From the NCBI GenBank assembly GCA_047602885.1, contig JBLKOQ010000005.1, positions 1 through 50,056 of the forward strand: a stretch of DNA of 50,056 nucleotides, read 5' to 3'. This stretch comes from Candidatus Woesearchaeota archaeon. GTDB taxonomy: Archaea > Nanobdellota > Nanobdellia > Woesearchaeales > WAPJ01. The notes beneath the pieces were generated by a model. The model worked only from the letters and a program-made list of their open reading frames with translations. It was not told the DNA's origin and did no database searches. Shown in pieces: positions 9,154 through 46,841 of the stretch (the stretch's first letter is position 1; each line of letters starts with the position of its first letter). Made by a program: the position numbers and the translations under genes.

Positions 9154-9780
9154 CTATGAGAATATGTAGTCGTCTATTAATGGGAGCCATAAACTGCCTT
9201 TGAATTGCATTATGGGATTGTTGTTGCCTTCCATTACCATTCGTATGAGCAAGTGCTTTTCTCCTACTGACAATACCATTATTCCAATATTTACTAGTTC
9301 CATTAGCCTCTTGTCGGTACTGCTTATGGTATTAAAACATATTATCCTGTCGTATGTCTTGCTAATATCTTTTAGTCTCCTATAATATTGTGGCGCTATA
9401 ATATTTAGTGTTCCTAGGTTGGCTGATGCTCTTTGTATATGTTCTATTCTTGGCTCTATAACATCTAGCTCTACTCCTATAGTGCTTAGTAGTGCTTCTT
9501 CATATCCTGTAATGCTTCCTATCTGGAGTACTTTTAGTTTTGTAGACAATGATGCCTCTACTAACAGTCTTATAGTCTTATAAGAATCTATTATTATGCT
9601 CTGATCATCTAATCTAATATCTTCCTGGGAGTAAGCCAGTTCTTTGTATCCTTCAGGAAGGAAATCCTCTCTTACTATTTTGAGAAATGCATTTACTACT
9701 AATTCATTCTTGATAATGCTCTCTTTTTTCCATAATTCTATTAGTTTCCTCCTGCTTTCTATACTATTATCATTTTTCAT
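9154..9780 (-). CDS. Protein-L-isoaspartate O-methyltransferase-like protein, degenerate
   Basis: VVNAFLKIVREDFLP..AY and KVLQIGSITGY; start reassigned to ATG 9780 because the longer ORF reads through the MITE. Confidence 0.7.
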   Translation of the reverse strand: MKNDNSIESRRKLIELWKKESIIKNELVVNAFLKIVREDFLPEGYKELAYSQEDIRLDDQSIIIDSYKTIRLLVEASLSTKLKVLQIGSITGYEEALLSTIGVELDVIEPRIEHIQRASANLGTLNIIAPQYYRRLKDISKTYDRIICFNTISSTDKRLMELVNIGIMVLSVGEKHLLIRMVMEGNNNPIMQFKGSLWLPLIDDYIFS

Positions 9781-9824
9781 GACATAACAAAGTCCTACGA
9801 TGATATAAAAGCATTGTTTTTTAG

Positions 9825-9958
9825 AGCTCCGCATATAATATACGAAAAAGTGTGCTATGCGCCACCCCGAAGGGGCCAACCCCCGGCCCATCAGCGTCAA
9901 GCGTGAACGTTCGTTCCCGCTCCAGCTGACGGCTGCCGCACACTTTTTCTCTAAGGCC
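9825..9958 (-). mobile_element. 134-bp MITE-like structured element, copy 1 (inverted)
   Basis: Reverse complement collinear with 29911-30044 and 33339-33472, same length; flanks match only 6/9. Confidence 0.8.
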
Positions 9959-10009
9959 TTTTGTTGGGAAATCTTTAAAAGCATGATGTGTATTGCTGTT
10001 AGTGGAGGG

Positions 10010-19860: not shown

Positions 19861-19967
19861 TTAGCTACGTGCTACATGCAACAAATATTACTATTTATTA
19901 GCAGAAATCCCATTATATAGTAGCAACTAATAGCAATTCTTTTATATTCATCGTGTATTCTTTGAGT

Positions 19968-20555
19968 ATGGGCAGGAAAATTCCTATAAGGATAAGAAAA
20001 AATATTGCGAGGATGTATGATGCTGGGCTTAGTCCTAAAGAAATATCATTAAAAATGGGTGTTCCTTACGCTACCGTGTACGGGCATACTCGCTTAAGAG
20101 ATCGTATTAATCCTGAGACTGGTAAGAAGTTCGAGTCAAGACACCAATACCACGAATACCTCGCAAGACAAAAGACCAACCCCGAAACTGGCAAGCCTTT
20201 TGAGTCAAGACACCAATACCACGAATACCTCGCAAGACAAAAGACCAACCCCGAAACTGGAAAGAAGTTCGATACGTTATACCAGTATTATGATATGGTT
20301 GCCATAGAGAGGTCTCGTAATCTTGAAAATAGTGTGATTAGCAGTATCATTAATCTTAGGCTTAGAGAGCTAGCAAAGAATAAGTCATGGCTGTCCAAAC
20401 AAACAGGGATAGCATCGCAGAGGATATCAGAGTATGCTGCAGGAAAAATACTGCCTGAACCCGAGAATTTTAGGGCCATATGCAACGCTCTTGACATACG
20501 CTATGATACGCTAGAAAGCCTGCTATCTATAGAGTATAAGCCTATAAGAGAATAA
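19968..20555 (+). CDS. Transcriptional regulator: N-terminal HTH, three NPETG repeats, C-terminal XRE HTH
   Basis: GLSPKEISLKMGVPYATVY; KSWLSKQTGIASQRISEYAAGKILP. Confidence 0.8.
   Translation: MGRKIPIRIRKNIARMYDAGLSPKEISLKMGVPYATVYGHTRLRDRINPETGKKFESRHQYHEYLARQKTNPETGKPFESRHQYHEYLARQKTNPETGKKFDTLYQYYDMVAIERSRNLENSVISSIINLRLRELAKNKSWLSKQTGIASQRISEYAAGKILPEPENFRAICNALDIRYDTLESLLSIEYKPIRE
20109..20290 (+). repeat. 69-bp (23-aa) coding tandem repeat, about 2.6 copies
   Basis: NPETGK(K/P)FESRHQYHEYLARQKT starting at 20109, 20178 and 20247. Confidence 0.92.
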
Positions 20556-29841: not shown

Positions 29842-29910
29842 AACGAGTATAAGATTTGATAGTATAATATGATGACATGGGGTTGTCTAATGAGTTCTTG
29901 TTATCATCCA

Positions 29911-30044
29911 GGCATTGTAGTAAAGGTGTGCGACAGCCGTCAGCACGAGCGGGAACGAACGTTCACGCTTGACGCTGATGCCGCCGGGGGTGACCCCTAC
30001 GGGGTGGCGCATAGCGCACTTTTTCAGACATTTTCTACAGAGCC
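29911..30044 (+). mobile_element. 134-bp MITE-like structured element, copy 2
   Basis: Imperfect TIRs GGCATTGTAGTAAA / TTTTCTACAGAGCC (11/14); flanking 9-bp duplication TATCATCCA / TATCGTCCA. Confidence 0.85.
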
Positions 30045-30090
30045 TATCGTCCAGAAAGGTTTAAGAATAATAAACTCCCGAATTTAGTGC

Positions 30091-30840
30091 ATGGAGCCAT
30101 TGGAATTCGCATTGTTTGCCCTTATAGGAATGGGCACAGGATTCCTCTCAGGACTGTTTGGTATAGGAGGGGGCAGCATTAGGATTCCTCTGCTTATGAT
30201 GATGGGCCTCCCTATAGTAAACGCTTATGCTACTAACATGATAGCCATATCGTTCTCTTCAGGAACTGCTGCCCTGGTTCAAAGAAAGAATATTGACTGG
30301 AAAATGGCCTATTATGTTATGATAGGAGGAGTCATAGGAGTGGGCCTTGCTACTTTACTGGTAGGAATAATATCCCCTATCATTCTTGCATGGATATTCC
30401 TTTTTGCTTCAATAGTTACTACTCTGGGTCTTTATCTTGAAAGTATCAGTCCTAAACTCTCAGGACGAATACACCCTAATAAGACTAATGTTGTAAGCGG
30501 AATATTCTTCCTTAATTTTATTATTGGTCTTAGGGGCGGTTCGGGAGGAACACTGTTTCCTCCTTTCCTGCATATGATGCATCTTGAGATGCACAGGGCA
30601 ATAGCCACTAGTCTTATGGCATCTTTTGTTACGGGAACTGTTGCTACGCTGATATACATTTTTAGGGGTGATGTATTGTGGATGATAGCATTGATTGTCG
30701 GTATTTTCGATATTTTAGGCGCTTATGCAGGAGGAAGAGTGTCTTTGAGGTCAGCATCCTCTTTTCTTAAGGCGGGGCTTGCTATACTCGTATTCATGCT
30801 TGCAGTATATGTTGTCTATAGTCAATATGCCCTCAGATAG
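30091..30840 (+). CDS. TauE/SafE sulfite-exporter family membrane protein
   Basis: GFLSGLFGIGGG, GGSGG, AIATSL; 8 TM helices. Confidence 0.9.
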   Translation: MEPLEFALFALIGMGTGFLSGLFGIGGGSIRIPLLMMMGLPIVNAYATNMIAISFSSGTAALVQRKNIDWKMAYYVMIGGVIGVGLATLLVGIISPIILAWIFLFASIVTTLGLYLESISPKLSGRIHPNKTNVVSGIFFLNFIIGLRGGSGGTLFPPFLHMMHLEMHRAIATSLMASFVTGTVATLIYIFRGDVLWMIALIVGIFDILGAYAGGRVSLRSASSFLKAGLAILVFMLAVYVVYSQYALR

Positions 30841-32595: not shown

Positions 32596-33351
32596 ATGAA
32601 CCCGCCTTATTATTTTATTACAGCCAACGGAAAGACCAGAGCATACTATAATAATGTAAAGTATGAGGGCAAGGAAGGCATTATACCATTAGAACAAATA
32701 AATGATGCTGTTGATGGCGAATCGTTAAAGACTCATCTTGGCAAGAGCATTAGTATACACTCAGCGAATCCATTTGATATCATTGAAGATTTCAGGAGAG
32801 GACCTCAAACTATAGTGCTAAAGGATGCTATGTATATTATAGGACGTTTAGGCATCAATAAGAATAGCATAGTACTGGAGGGCGGTACAGGTTCTGGGAG
32901 CATGGCCGCATATTTTGCATTGTATTCTAGTAAAGTATACTCTTTTGAGCGCAGGAAAGAATTCTATGATATTAGTGCCAAGAACATAGGCCGTATTAAG
33001 AGTTATGACGCATTCTCAGATATTATTATGATAGAAGATGATATATCTTCAGCGCCAGCACATGTTAAAGAGAAGGTCGATGCAATATTCCTTGATGTTC
33101 CTGAGCCATGGAAATACTTAGAAATGCTAAAGCCACTGCTTAAGGATAATGGAAGGATAGCATGTTATGTCCCTAATGTTACTCAAGCTATCGAATTTGC
33201 GAATAGCCTTAAAGGATTCGTGTATGAAGAATGCTCTGAAGTAATGGTTAGGCAATGGAATGTTCATGGCAGGATAGCAAAGCCTCATAAAGAGCTGATG
33301 CATACTGCTTTCCTGTTGTTTGCACTTAACAAAAGAGCTGCGTTGCAGTAA
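32596..33351 (+). CDS. trmI: tRNA (adenine57/58-N1)-methyltransferase
   Basis: RGPQTIVLKD, VLEGGTGSG, LDVPEPW, YVPNVTQ, MHTAFL. Confidence 0.9.
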   Translation: MNPPYYFITANGKTRAYYNNVKYEGKEGIIPLEQINDAVDGESLKTHLGKSISIHSANPFDIIEDFRRGPQTIVLKDAMYIIGRLGINKNSIVLEGGTGSGSMAAYFALYSSKVYSFERRKEFYDISAKNIGRIKSYDAFSDIIMIEDDISSAPAHVKEKVDAIFLDVPEPWKYLEMLKPLLKDNGRIACYVPNVTQAIEFANSLKGFVYEECSEVMVRQWNVHGRIAKPHKELMHTAFLLFALNKRAALQ

Positions 33352-33472
33352 GGGTGTGCGACAGCCGTCAGCTGGAGCAAGAACAACTGTTCTTGCTTGA
33401 CGCTGATGGGCCGGGGGTTGGCCCCTGCGGGGTGGCGCATAGCACACCTTCACTGACATTTGCATCAGAGCC
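33339..33472 (+). mobile_element. 134-bp MITE-like structured element, copy 3
   Basis: Collinear with copies 1 and 2; flanks CAAAAGAGC / CAAAAAGAGC; supplies the trmI stop codon. Confidence 0.85.
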
Positions 33473-33516
33473 CAAAAAGAGCATAATATTTATAAGTTGC
33501 AGACTAGTCTATAGTA

Positions 33517-34149
33517 GTGGGGGATAGAATGAAAAAGAATATGTTGGTTAGAGACTTGATGGAATCAGGGGGTATTAGCGAATACCTTATAAGAGAATTT
33601 ACTCATGCACACTCTTTTCCTCTGGTAATGGACCTCGTATACAAAAAGAGGAATATCCAGGTTTCTTTGGACTATGAGGATGTAGAGATATGCTTTTCTA
33701 CAGCCAAGTATATAGAGAATTATTCTCTTAGTATGATTAAGCCCAAGAGGTTCACCAAGTCTTTTTGGAGCAGGCTTACAAGATTCCTGTTCAACTCTAC
33801 ATTGTATGCGAGGAGCGGTATATTCATGATAGAAACGAGCAGTCATTTTAATGACAGGGAGCTTTCTTTGATAGCGGAATTCTATTCGGAATTTTCTGAG
33901 AGATATCTTCAGGACGCTGATTTCTTTGTGGGCATAGGAATAAAAGTGAATCCAAATCTAAAAAACAGTGTTAGTTTCCACTCGCTAAGTTTCTATCCTA
34001 AGAGCGCTAAACTGTGCCAGTCATGCTACCAGAAAGTAGCCAAGTTTATTATTAGGGAAGGAGAAGAGCATTATCAGGCTTGCGAGAGATGCTCTCATAC
34101 CGAAAAACCTGCCAAACGCAAGAGAAGAGTATCTCAGAGGAGGAGATAG
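33517..34149 (+). CDS. Hypothetical protein resembling the FtsZ C-terminal domain plus a CxxC..CxxC zinc finger
   Basis: SLDYEDV (compare NLDFADV); ARSGIFMI...QDADFFVGIGIKVNPNL; CQSC...CERC. Confidence 0.5.
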   Translation: MGDRMKKNMLVRDLMESGGISEYLIREFTHAHSFPLVMDLVYKKRNIQVSLDYEDVEICFSTAKYIENYSLSMIKPKRFTKSFWSRLTRFLFNSTLYARSGIFMIETSSHFNDRELSLIAEFYSEFSERYLQDADFFVGIGIKVNPNLKNSVSFHSLSFYPKSAKLCQSCYQKVAKFIIREGEEHYQACERCSHTEKPAKRKRRVSQRRR

Positions 34150-35439: not shown

Positions 35440-35523
35440 CCATAGAATACTATTGTGGGGGTGATTAAAAAAGGTATCGGTAGGGATATGTTTTTAAAAG
35501 ACCTATAATCTCTCCAGTATCAT

Positions 35524-35599
35524 GCCTCTGTGGCGCAGCCGGTAGCGCGCGTCCTTGGTAAGGACGAGGTCCCGGGTTCAAATCCCGGCAGAGGCTCCA
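35524..35599 (+). tRNA. tRNA-Thr(GGT), CCA encoded
   Basis: Acceptor GCCTCTG/CAGAGGC-T-CCA; CGTCC-TTGGTAA-GGACG. Confidence 0.95.
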
Positions 35600-38180: not shown

Positions 38181-39096
38181 CTCTTATATTCCAGACAATC
38201 CTTATTGCAATGAGGGAACAGCTGATTTTACACTGCGAATCCAGGAGAGAGGATTGGATCCTATACTACTATTTCCCAGTGAGATTGGCAAAGAAGATCC
38301 TCCGAGGCTGTTTAGGCCTCATTATTACAGGAAGAATGGGATTACAGGAATATTTTTGGAACAGTTATCTGAAGTTTTGGACTATGACTCTTTTTTTTGG
38401 GTTTATGGATTGGATGAACAAGAACCATCCATGAATTCAGGATTCTTTCCAGGCCTTAAAGAGTATAATGACAGTGGGATGAGGATGATGAACACTCCAG
38501 TGGCAGAATACTGGGCCGCATCAAAAAAGAACATACTAAAGCTTGACAGTATTCCTATTCCCCGTACATATATAGCAGACAGTGAAGATGATTTGTTGGA
38601 ATTGCTAAAAGATGAAGGCAGACTGGTTGCAAAGGCAGACTCCAGTTTTAGGGGTGCCAACATACATCTCATAGAACATACCAGTATTGGCTCAGAATCA
38701 TATAATGCAGTCGCATCAAATATTGAAGGCTACATATTACAAGAGTTAGTGCCCAACGATAACGAAACACGACTAATATATCTTGACGGAAAGCTTATAG
38801 CATCCCGCCAGATAATCAACAGGGAAACGCCATGGGAAAAGAGAACTGGCGATTATGCTAATAGAAAATCTGTTAATCGCAGTCTTAAAATACCATATAA
38901 TCCTTCGAAAGAGGAGTTGGATATAGCAAGTTCTATCATAGAGCAGACAGGAATGGAATACGGCTCGATAGACTTTTTTGTAGGCGACAAAATAGTAGTG
39001 AACGAAATCAACGGTTCAGGAACAGGAACAGAGCCATACAAAGGACTAATAATTACGGACATGCTACTAGACCATGTCATAAGGAAGTATCTGTAA
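38152..39096 (+). CDS. Glutathione-synthetase(GshB)-like ATP-grasp ligase, paralog A
   Basis: EGTADFTLRIQERG N-terminus, MNTP, AKADSSFRG, LQE, TRLIYLDG, IDF, NEIN; GTG start by collinearity with paralog B. Confidence 0.8.
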   Translation: MIRLFYATINSYIPDNPYCNEGTADFTLRIQERGLDPILLFPSEIGKEDPPRLFRPHYYRKNGITGIFLEQLSEVLDYDSFFWVYGLDEQEPSMNSGFFPGLKEYNDSGMRMMNTPVAEYWAASKKNILKLDSIPIPRTYIADSEDDLLELLKDEGRLVAKADSSFRGANIHLIEHTSIGSESYNAVASNIEGYILQELVPNDNETRLIYLDGKLIASRQIINRETPWEKRTGDYANRKSVNRSLKIPYNPSKEELDIASSIIEQTGMEYGSIDFFVGDKIVVNEINGSGTGTEPYKGLIITDMLLDHVIRKYL

Positions 39097-39121
39097 ATGG
39101 AAATGGCACTATATTGGAGAG

Positions 39122-40066
39122 GTGATGGCATTGTTTTATCTTACGTTAAATTCTGACATTCCAGTAAACCCCTTCTATTATGATAGTACTATCGACATTG
39201 TTTTCAAAGTTCAGGATAGGGGTTTGGATATCAGGGCAATTTTTCCTTCAGAAGTGGGTAAAGAAAACAGTCCTACCCTATATTATCCTATATCATCAGT
39301 AATTAAAGGTACCAGGGGACTGTTCTTAGAGCGTACTAATGATAAAATTGACAATGACTCTGTCATCTGGATATATGGTCTTGATGAGCATAGGCCTGCA
39401 CTGAATCCTAATTTATTTGGCGGACTGCAACAATATCATGAAAGTGGGATGAGGATGATGAACACTCCAGTGGCAGAATACTGGGCCGCATCAAAGAAGA
39501 ACATACTAAAGCTTGATAGTATTCCCATTCCAAGAACGTACAGTTTAAGCAGTGAAGAAGAACTTATTGGTCTCTTAAAAGATGAAAAAAGATTGGTTGC
39601 AAAGGCAGACTCAAGTTTCGGAGGACATAACATACATCTCATAGAACATAATAGTATTGGCTCAGAATCGTATAATGCAGTAGCATCAAATATTGAAGGC
39701 TATATAATACAAGAGTATGTGCCCAACGATAACGAAACACGACTAATATATCTTGACGGAAAGCTTATAGCATCCCGCCAGATAATCAACAGGGAAACGC
39801 CATGGGAGAAGAGAAGCGCGGATTATGACCCTTCATCTGCTTCACGTAAAAAAAGGGTTATTCCGTATACACCCACAAGAAAAGAATTGTATACTGCCAA
39901 CTCTATTATAGAACAGACAGGAATGGAATACGGCTCGATAGACTTTTTTGTAGGCGACAAAGTAGTAGTGAACGAAATCAACGGTTCAGGAACAGGAACA
40001 GAGCCATACAAAGGACTAATAATAACGGACATGCTGCTGGACCATGTCATAAGGAAGTATTTGTAA
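39122..40066 (+). CDS. GshB-like ATP-grasp ligase, paralog B
   Basis: DSTIDIVFKVQDRG (compare GshB DSxxxMLxEAQRRG); same ATP-grasp motifs. Confidence 0.8.
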   Translation: MMALFYLTLNSDIPVNPFYYDSTIDIVFKVQDRGLDIRAIFPSEVGKENSPTLYYPISSVIKGTRGLFLERTNDKIDNDSVIWIYGLDEHRPALNPNLFGGLQQYHESGMRMMNTPVAEYWAASKKNILKLDSIPIPRTYSLSSEEELIGLLKDEKRLVAKADSSFGGHNIHLIEHNSIGSESYNAVASNIEGYIIQEYVPNDNETRLIYLDGKLIASRQIINRETPWEKRSADYDPSSASRKKRVIPYTPTRKELYTANSIIEQTGMEYGSIDFFVGDKVVVNEINGSGTGTEPYKGLIITDMLLDHVIRKYL

Positions 40067-40067
40067 A

Positions 40068-46202: not shown

Positions 46203-46275
46203 AGCCCTGTGGTGTAGCGGCCTATCATCTCGGACTCTGGATCCGGGGACCCCGGTTCGAATCCGGGCAGGGCTA
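46203..46275 (+). tRNA. tRNA-Gln(CTG)
   Basis: Acceptor AGCCCTG/CAGGGCT-A; TCGGA-CTCTGGA-TCCGG; GGTTCGAATCC. Confidence 0.95.
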
Positions 46276-46473
46276 GATTCTATAACAAAATAATATGCCC
46301 AAATTCGAACACAACAAAAATCACAGATTTTTGAGGTTCGCCTTCATAGAAGCCGAACAATCCGGGCAGGGCTAGATTCTATAACAAAATAATATGCCCA
46401 GATTCGAACACAACAAAAATCACAGATTTTTGAGGTTTGCCTTCATAGAAGCCGAACAATCCGGGCAGGGCTA
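46260..46473 (+). repeat. tRNA-linked 99-bp tandem repeat (2 units, 3 copies of the tRNA 3' end)
   Basis: AATCCGGGCAGGGCTA at 46260, 46359 and 46458; the two units differ at 2 positions. Confidence 0.92.
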
Positions 46474-46623: not shown

Positions 46624-46660
46624 GCGCATAGCACACTTTTCAGACATTTTCTTCAGAGCC
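46624..46660 (+). mobile_element. Right-end remnant of the 134-bp MITE-like element
   Basis: GCGCATAGCACACTTTTCAGACATTTTCTTCAGAGCC matches the right ends of copies 2 and 3. Confidence 0.75.
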
Positions 46661-46841
46661 CATGTTTCACTACTTTATAATGACTATATAATTCCAAGTA
46701 AGAAAACTAAGATAAATAATACCTCAATAGCGTTGAGTCATTAGAATTCAAAGAATCAGTTTTTGCTTACTGAGACTGAGCAGAGCGAATTCATTTTGTA
46801 ATTATAGTAATCCTAATAAACACCCCATCTAATTTATTGTT

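Follow-up and report, generated by a model that had tools for sequence, protein, structure and literature searches.

A promoter-proximal MITE family with a conserved, predicted three-way-junction core in a Woesearchaeota genome

The window analysed here, a stretch of 50,056 nt, is archaeal by its gene content, which includes topoisomerase VI A and B, a family-B DNA polymerase, a Pno1/KRR1-type KH protein and a wyosine-formation enzyme. It comes from a Woesearchaeota genome of 1.07 Mb in 47 contigs (38.6% G+C, 91.8% complete), whose assembly lacks a 16S rRNA gene. It holds three full copies of a repeat, each 134 bp, together with one right-end remnant, as an earlier reading of the same DNA made from its letters (hereafter the sequence-only reading) had described; the remnant extends over 46624-46663. 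Also as described there, two copies lie between divergently transcribed genes, these being two of the three full copies. The features are as follows, in window coordinates.

9803..9809, minus strand: TATA-like box TTTATAT, 6 nt past the duplication of the 9825 copy; the minus-strand gene starts at 9780
9825..9958, minus strand: MITE copy in the opposite orientation, flanked by divergent genes
29902..29910: left target-site duplication of the 29911 copy, TATCATCCA
29911..30044, plus strand: the flagged MITE copy, 134 bp
30045..30053: right target-site duplication of the 29911 copy, TATCGTCCA, 8/9 identical to the left one
30060..30066, plus strand: TATA-like box TTTAAGA, 6 nt past the duplication of the 29911 copy
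33330..33338 and 33474..33482: duplication of the 33339 copy, CAAAAGAGC / AAAAAGAGC
33339..33472/33473, plus strand: MITE copy with two co-directional neighbour genes
33489..33495, plus strand: TATA box TTTATAA, 6 nt past the right duplication of the 33339 copy
35475..35483: empty target site, tatcggtag, followed after 7 nt by TTTTTAAAA
46624..46663, plus strand: 5'-truncated remnant, right end only, spanning the GCGCATAGCACAC block to the right inverted end

Downstream of the 29911 copy, a TauE-family gene has its ATG at 30091. The 33339 copy lies between plus-strand genes on both sides (a context set by hand check), the upstream one encoding a GCD14-type methyltransferase and the downstream one starting at 33517/33530. 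The 9825 copy, whose duplication is 6/9 identical (9959-9967 / 9816-9824), separates a PCMT-like gene on the minus strand from a PPDK_N-domain gene on the plus strand. The genes flanking the copies in the window have no theme in common, and an ORF check found coding through the MITE only as spurious extensions of adjoining genes. Between its inverted ends the 29911-30044 copy contains an outer stem P1, a 5' hairpin P3/P3b and a helix X, which surrounds a G5-loop-C5 hairpin and a conserved CGGGGUG tail. Each full window copy folds far better than shuffled sequence on the strand shown (z about -4).

Genome-wide, blastn recovered 57 pieces of the element, and an nhmmer profile built from the copies gave 59 hits, 44 of them near-full. 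The remaining hits comprise pieces cut at contig ends, three copies into which a 90-nt repeat from a different family is nested, two heavily decayed copies on contig C14, and the window remnant. As projected, the 9-bp direct repeats are identical in 13 of the 44 copies and carry a single mismatch in nine more, giving at least 8/9 identity in 22/44, or in 29/44 when shifts of up to 3 nt are allowed; of 20000 9-mer pairs drawn at random with a spacing of 134 nt, 8 showed 8/9 identity and not one was identical throughout. The duplications noted in the sequence-only reading are thus a property of the family as well as of the best copy (8/9). Its description of imperfect, GGCnnTG-type ends fits individual copies, many of which have decayed, but not the family, whose consensus is a perfect 14-bp inverted repeat starting GGCTCTGTAG; taken as pairs, the inverted ends of the copies in the genome match in 78% of cells. 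With a length of 134 bp, many copies, no coding capacity, inverted ends, 9-bp target-site duplications and a partner insertion sequence (IS) that has the same ends, the element is a MITE.

The partner IS occupies C19:3116-4004 (889 bp). Its perfect 14-bp ends are identical to those of the MITE, it is flanked by a 9-bp duplication, GTAAAAAAT, and it contains a single 285-aa frame with a DDE_Tnp_1 domain, a Y-2-R-3-E-6-K signature and a PF01609 score of 38-41 bits against a cut-off of 23. PF01609 has three hits in the genome, on contigs C38, C19 and C7, and none in the window, in agreement with the sequence-only reading, which had proposed a search for a transposase with matching ends. The best NCBIfam match by far is NF033579 (IS5_2; E 4e-34), at 118 bits where the curated cut-off is 140, and the closest annotated relatives are archaeal IS5 transposases with 24-28% identity. 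An enterobacterial plasmid IS of 1057 bp (L171), which we take to be IS903, encodes a transposase 22% identical to that of the partner IS, and its 18-bp end matches ends in this genome at 8-9 of the first 10 nt. Members of the IS903-like group make 9-bp duplications and have GGC termini; here we find a 9-bp duplication and termini starting GGCT. From its sequence, the partner IS therefore appears to be an IS5-family, IS903-like element, one of the affiliations that the sequence-only reading had put forward. IS ends were also found at about eight contig ends, so the IS is present in several copies and interrupts the assembly. The left end of the MITE continues like the transposase-proximal end of the IS and the right end like the distal one, and the transposase of the 889-bp IS is the sole candidate driver of the MITE. 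An origin of the MITE core as an IS derivative was considered and rejected, since the MITE interior and the IS align locally with a score (16) no better than that of shuffles (mean 17.9); a resemblance of GGCGCATAGC to GGCTCATAGC near the 3' end of the IS was likewise not significant.

Site polymorphism between related strains was seen at the empty site listed above, which precedes the tRNA at 35524 by 41 nt. In two other metagenome runs, representing related strains (X9, X10), contigs pass from window position 35483 directly into an element copy, the left junction alone being seen in the filled site, where the window is empty. The site carries the same target pattern as the other insertions. 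For the window's own copies at 29911-30044 and 33339-33472, no clean empty-site joint was found among the short, multi-mapping DNA contigs of four runs. The proposal that this is a non-autonomous mobile element is borne out by its inverted repeats, its 9-bp duplications, a partner IS with the same ends and this polymorphic site.

The target pattern was derived from the 29 best-defined empty sites, rebuilt and oriented by the element. Beyond the duplication, an A occupies +4 in 22/29 sites and TTTATAA occupies +7 to +13 (17-22/29 sites per position), and the left flank shows a weaker, exact mirror image of this right-flank pattern. A TATA-like heptamer 5-7 nt past the duplication is present in 21 of the 29 sites (15 right, 6 left), against a background of 0.9% per side. 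The start of the right-hand gene lies 33-38 nt from the insertion point in 12 copies, and that of the left-hand gene 44-45 nt away in 8, which corresponds to 35-36 nt past the duplication; these spacings agree with leaderless genes whose BRE/TATA box starts right after the 6-nt gap. The insertion spot is one in which the duplication lies 6 nt upstream of a TTTATAA box and about 36 nt before leaderless starts, in either orientation. The autonomous IS copy has the same target pattern as the MITE. For the 39 copies with both neighbours called, gene context was scored as co-oriented (12), anti-oriented (9), divergent (18) or convergent (none); convergent gaps make up 17% of gaps in the genome by number and 19% by length, and the chance of finding zero copies in them is about 2-5 in 10000.

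Tight intergenic space and selection could account for part of this positioning. The 36-38-nt spacing nevertheless persists where 57-201 nt separate the copy from its other neighbour, for which reason we read the landing spot as target choice. For IS903, target choice depends on a palindrome that flanks the 9-bp duplication on the outside (WTTYA-N9-TRAAW, Table 1 of PMC2577343), and a direct DNA preference is therefore the simplest targeting mechanism here; an alternative is tethering to TBP/TFB. Element orientation shows no correlation with GC skew in 3-, 8- or 20-kb flanks or with the majority coding strand. Neighbouring copies on one contig have the same orientation in 16/21 cases (permutation p 0.009), a signal that is only suggestive because five of the 21 adjacent pairs are <2 kb apart, and which could arise from a replication-linked bias of the transposase or from local hopping.

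The approximately 100-nt interior is predicted to adopt a three-way-junction fold with conserved junction nucleotides, as opposed to being IS-derived filler. In this model the outer stem P1 is lengthened by an A run and a T run and followed by a conserved single-stranded joiner; the 5' helix P3 bears a variable hairpin, P3b; the conserved module reads G5-loop-C3-5-loop-GGGGUG; and after helix X the letters AUAG run back into P1. T5 follows the outer stem on both strands, and T4-T7 in relatives. Compensatory changes claimed in the sequence-only reading are real: AU is replaced by GC at the base of P1, the inner hairpin appears as GGG/CAC or AAG/CTT, and one loop varies only as TTC/TAC/TGC. P3b, moreover, occurs within the genome in three compensated versions. 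Within the genome, two-sided changes are found in 28 cells where shuffles give 13.9 +/- 2.8 (0/500), and the pairs that show such a change number 7, no more than in shuffles, so that covariation inside the genome alone is real but small. All four combinations of hairpin type and an A/G site occur among the copies, which indicates recombination among them; gene conversion may add to the uniformity of the core. No promoter was seen inside the element, and a scan for bacterial-type terminators and promoters, in which an 8-nt loop limit bars branched folds and the model is not archaeal, left the elements unflagged.

The pairing is strand-specific. Across the 42 resident copies, the core helices contain 81 G-U pairs (39 without one invariant G-U) and 3 A-C mismatches, and the inverted ends taken as pairs contain 47 G-U, 25 A-C and 97 other mismatches; across genomes the ratio of G-U to A-C is 23 to 4. 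This excess implies that the strand carrying the G runs is the one that must fold; the sequence-only reading had likewise noted that G.U pairs favour one orientation, and such a bias would not be expected of a duplex DNA site or a cruciform. As a proxy for change after insertion we used alleles present in at most two of the 42 copies. Per site, such rare alleles amount to 3.7% in the terminal and subterminal parts and to 0.9% in the core (Fisher p 8e-11), with a single one in the 1554 cells of the four invariant blocks. In two neighbouring segments, the G5/C5 hairpin and the 5' strand of helix X, they reach 2.4-3.6%, and the adjacent 17 positions have none. Target-site duplications, for comparison, are mismatched at about 53/387 positions (hand sum). 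Uniform youth of the copies does not explain the constant blocks, nor is gene conversion their cause, since variable and invariant segments alternate inside the element. The interior thus appears to be under structure-level, strand-specific selection, staying constant while the ends decay.

The core extends well beyond this genome. A DNA search of 400 genomes of the order found its 3' half in 32, and a motif pattern matched at least 108 stretches in public genomes, nearly all of them MAGs of Woesearchaeota or Nanoarchaeota, with a few, among the matches listed, bearing automatically assigned labels of different taxa. In viral contigs the module pattern had no match. The module occurs 26, 8, 7, 8 and 2 times in five genomes, and a reversed-pattern control gave 0. 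A covariance model of the core has matches at E <=0.001 in 23/150 other genomes of the order, a tally that counts one weak match in an unpublished genome (G132) used in no other result; strong full-length matches occur in G099, G116, G133 (15 copies), G037 and G054. In a cross-genome alignment of 26 sequences from 12 genomes, fitted to the structure of the model, which favours pairing, 94.0% of cells pair, compared with 68.5 +/- 1.0% in shuffles. In the same alignment 28 of 35 pairs are changed on both sides (20.8 +/- 1.7 in shuffles) and the covariation score is 0.548 (0.150 in shuffles); 0/500 shuffles matched any of these measures, and controls with slid partners pair at <=50%. The G5/C5 hairpin shows no covariation in this alignment. 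Cross-genome covariation, the G-U bias and constancy after insertion all agree with the sequence-only reading's suggestion that the interior is selected as a single-stranded structure. Its further suggestion of an undescribed ncRNA is in line with Rfam 15, which identified only five tRNAs in the window, three chance-level fragments in the element at E up to 10, and only tRNAs at eighteen related loci.

Most relatives carry the core in a second arrangement, form B, in which a long outer stem and a 4-bp helix are joined to a helix X with the same module, and helix X is followed by one A, a variable hairpin, GU and the return strand. Its helices could be parsed at fixed registers in 61 of 78 distinct sequences, the other 17 being excluded from the counts. 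Among these 61, positions 2 and 6 of helix X are 98-100% paired and use all four Watson-Crick types, positions 3-4 hold either tandem G-A/A-G or Watson-Crick pairs, and five of the six positions of the variable hairpin are 96-100% paired; pairing at the five tested positions was matched by 0/2000 shuffles. The letters flanking helix X are alike in both forms, and the variable hairpin lies 5' of X in the window form and 3' of it in form B, from which we infer that the two forms are probably circular permutations of one junction. The host genome has one form-B copy of its own, at about C40:290-385. Related genomes also contain head-to-head dimers of the module, and a GTAG/ATAG adjoins a hairpin.

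The ends around the core differ among genomes. In G099 it lies between ends starting GGCTAAGTCAAG and in G133 between ends starting GGTYTGTCCCAAA, and in G116, G054 and G298 its ends resemble those of the host-genome MITE. At least three kinds of end are thus found on MITEs that carry the core. All of these elements have 9-bp duplications, and for several of those in relatives a TATA box follows after a few more nt. Degenerate ends around an intact core are seen in G298 and in further genomes. A search with the transposase as query and with PF01609 did not find DDE_Tnp_1 in five other core-bearing genomes (MAGs 90-100% complete, in which repeats are often unassembled).

We regard as probable an overall explanation in which an IS5-driven, promoter-docking MITE bears a folded core that is under selection and acts in cis. 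The functional part of this explanation, the cis role of the core, is a tentative guess that we would expect to fail more often than to hold. In outline, the core would act at each site as a single-stranded structure, most likely RNA, that a host factor recognises or processes. Its GC closing stem, with a T run on both strands, could end transcripts arriving from either side just before the promoter, so that the element would serve as a transcript-end or insulator module and an insertion between a gene's end and the next promoter would become harmless or even useful. A benefit in cis at insertion sites would account for the presence of the core in several MITE families whose ends differ. Because element and gene orientations are evenly combined, read-through from the upstream gene would yield the selected strand in no more than roughly half of the insertions between co-directional genes. 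Termination alone would also leave the invariance of the G5/C/GGGGUG module and of the junction letters unexplained. A wider formulation, possible though we doubt it somewhat, is that the core represents an undescribed class of structured RNA in DPANN (Woesearchaeota/Nanoarchaeota), with permuted forms, spread by several MITEs and kept in cis by a host protein or by catalysis.

Other explanations account for parts of these observations. The MITE might be purely selfish, its core aiding transposition as fold-back single-stranded DNA that draws the two ends close or as a site for the transposase or a host factor, with no role where it has inserted. Families with at least three end types are what a module that raises mobilisation would be expected to colonise; co-orientation of 16/21 adjacent copies would suit replication-linked, strand-aware insertion, and a 1998 paper on IS903 reportedly has an orientation preference in its title; single-stranded DNA, too, permits G-T pairs. 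Transposition, however, selects source copies only, and 37 core positions are unchanged in the 42 resident copies while ends and duplications decay. The autonomous IS is without the core, which means that the transposase does not need it, and type-A copies persist in the five genomes (MAGs 90-100% complete) where DDE_Tnp_1 was not found. We therefore think a purely selfish element unlikely. That MITEs serve as vehicles for a small RNA which is catalytic or acts in trans, whether an undescribed self-cleaving ribozyme or a protein-recruiting RNA, seems quite improbable: the three-way junction, invariant junction letters and apparent circular permutation recall hammerhead and twister, and the association with repeated mobile DNA, strand specificity and lack of an Rfam match would also fit, but about fifty redundant trans-acting copies should not each remain constrained, no promoter could be seen within the element, even at E up to 10 it is matched by no known ribozyme model, and the hammerhead-like CUGA stretch is base-paired and covaries.

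Two further readings would dispense with the folded molecule or with selection on it. In one, a regulator or chromatin protein binds the conserved blocks as duplex DNA, roughly 45 bp ahead of around fifty promoters that the MITE would thus wire as a regulon, and the hairpins are incidental. This would account for the fixed position relative to promoters and for the invariant blocks, and orientation-independent function would suit the even orientation. Stems that change by compensating pairs while loops drift, tolerance of G-U and not of A-C, and the lack of a shared theme among the window's flanking genes make this very improbable. Gene conversion that homogenises the interior, and not the ends beside unique DNA, could leave resident copies uniform with no selection on them; recombinant combinations of variable segments do exist, and the ends are the most variable part. 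Conversion tracts, on the other hand, cannot yield an alternation of variable (2.4-3.6%) and invariant (17 positions, none) segments, and identical letters are kept in distant genomes, so that we give this last account next to no credence.

MITEs are usually viewed as decaying IS shells of which only the ends matter, whereas here the ends decay and the folded interior is kept, within the genome, across distant relatives and in MITEs with different ends. This points to a functional single-stranded module, probably RNA, that is tolerated or used by tiny, gene-dense archaea and is in no RNA database. Landing 6 nt upstream of TATA boxes offers a testable case of promoter-directed transposition in Archaea, and the insertions could serve as a natural promoter map in uncultured DPANN genomes. 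If the wider formulation of an undescribed structured RNA is true, mobile elements distribute a functional RNA part to dozens of promoters by means of a BRE/TATA-docking IS5 transposase.

A census (PMC11602168) counts 105 MITEs per Mb in a Woesearchaea genome, one of the highest densities in archaea, and a review that covers archaeal MITEs and the roles of bacterial ones is available (PMC10969869, cited here from excerpts). Literature searches on DPANN/Woesearchaeota MITEs, archaeal insertion sequences and DPANN ncRNA, with subscription journals and supplements outside their scope, returned no description of the core or of promoter-directed insertion in Archaea. In excerpts of that review, the Correia elements (CREE/NEMIS) of Neisseria, ERIC and SPRITE are described as having transcripts that fold and as altering expression by way of promoters, IHF sites, RNase III and terminator-like forms (PMC10969869). 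Going by these excerpts, our element resembles Correia-type MITEs in its 100-200 bp size, its many copies in a small genome and its placement mostly just upstream of genes. It differs from them in its archaeal host, 9-bp duplication, IS5 partner and fixed distance to the TATA box, and in a covarying, asymmetric three-way-junction core common to families with different ends.

With IS903 and other IS5 elements it shares DDE_Tnp_1, the 9-bp duplication, GGCT ends and targets set by flanks outside the duplication, and the end of one subfamily here matches the L171 IS end at 9/10 of the first nt. The differences lie in the 22-28% transposase identity, the shorter IS (889 bp) and the TATA/BRE-like target 6 nt off; compared with IS5 MITEs, the interior is a conserved folded module and not an IS deletion derivative. 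REP/REPIN sequences are similar as GC-rich, structured intergenic repeats in AT-richer genomes, with strand-specific hairpins conserved in place. REPs carry a GTAG, and here a GTAG/ATAG stands beside a hairpin and related genomes show head-to-head module dimers. Assignment to a REP/REPIN-RAYT system was rejected: PF01797 (Y1) was not found in the 91.8% complete genome, and the element has inverted ends and 9-bp duplications. Hammerhead and twister ribozymes share with the core a three-way junction, a few invariant junction nucleotides, compensating helices, ends opened in different helices and a frequent tie to repeated mobile DNA. Here no Rfam ribozyme model scores, and the core letters of the hammerhead are not kept; the hammerhead, which has unpaired CUGANGA and GAAA cores around three helices, was rejected as a candidate because no model hit was obtained at E up to 10, GAAA is absent, and the CUGA of a hammerhead-like CUGAUG pairs with UCAG and covaries. 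Elements that target promoters include Ty3/Ty1 of yeast and Tf1, as well as TnGBS / ISLre2-type DDE elements, which insert upstream of sigma-A promoters. The family described here is like them in inserting at a fixed short distance upstream of a core promoter, by which genes are spared in a compact genome, and differs in that the promoter is of the archaeal BRE/TATA kind and the transposase is of the IS5 family.

A second family of structured repeats, ~90-97 nt long and distinct from the 134-bp MITE, occurs outside the window in the genome that contains it (G000), where blastn returns 28 matches, among them the example copies below.

C33:71-160, ~90-97-nt repeat
C18:17834-17923, ~90-97-nt repeat
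C23:4528-4617, ~90-97-nt repeat
~25 more places in G000

These repeats are flanked by GATTG... on one side and ...GATT on the other, and three MITE copies contain one nested at an identical position, which separates the inner hairpin from the 3' strand of core helix P3. At C7:60590-61096 of the same genome, 9 nt separate a MITE copy from a solo right end of the IS (the 889-bp IS5-family element) and a fragment of its DDE transposase; here a MITE has inserted next to an IS that has decayed.

The window holds other internal repeats as well.

20109-20315, 69-bp repeat present three times, in frame, within ORF 19953-20555
38380-40067, tandem duplication of 970 bp, copies 76-88% identical
46260-46457, two tandem repeats of 99 bp each, 98% identical

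The ORF encodes an HTH_3 domain and sits immediately upstream of the genes for topoisomerase VI B/A. The 970-bp duplication spans two unannotated genes and adjoins genes for a RimK-type ATP-grasp protein and an LD-carboxypeptidase. Beginning within the 3' end of a tRNA gene (46203-46275), the 99-bp repeats look like an att-type duplication that an integrated element left behind, and the MITE remnant follows after another 170 nt.

One copy of the core, at ~290-385 of contig C40, has the permuted layout found in most relatives (form B), and the rest of the genome carries about fifty copies in form A. Several relatives also contain head-to-head module pairs, in which the forward copy comes after a reverse-complement one (loci L063, L066, L067, L073, L076, L102, L119, L123 and L141, all in other genomes), and the larger palindromic units that these modules form recall REPIN dimers.
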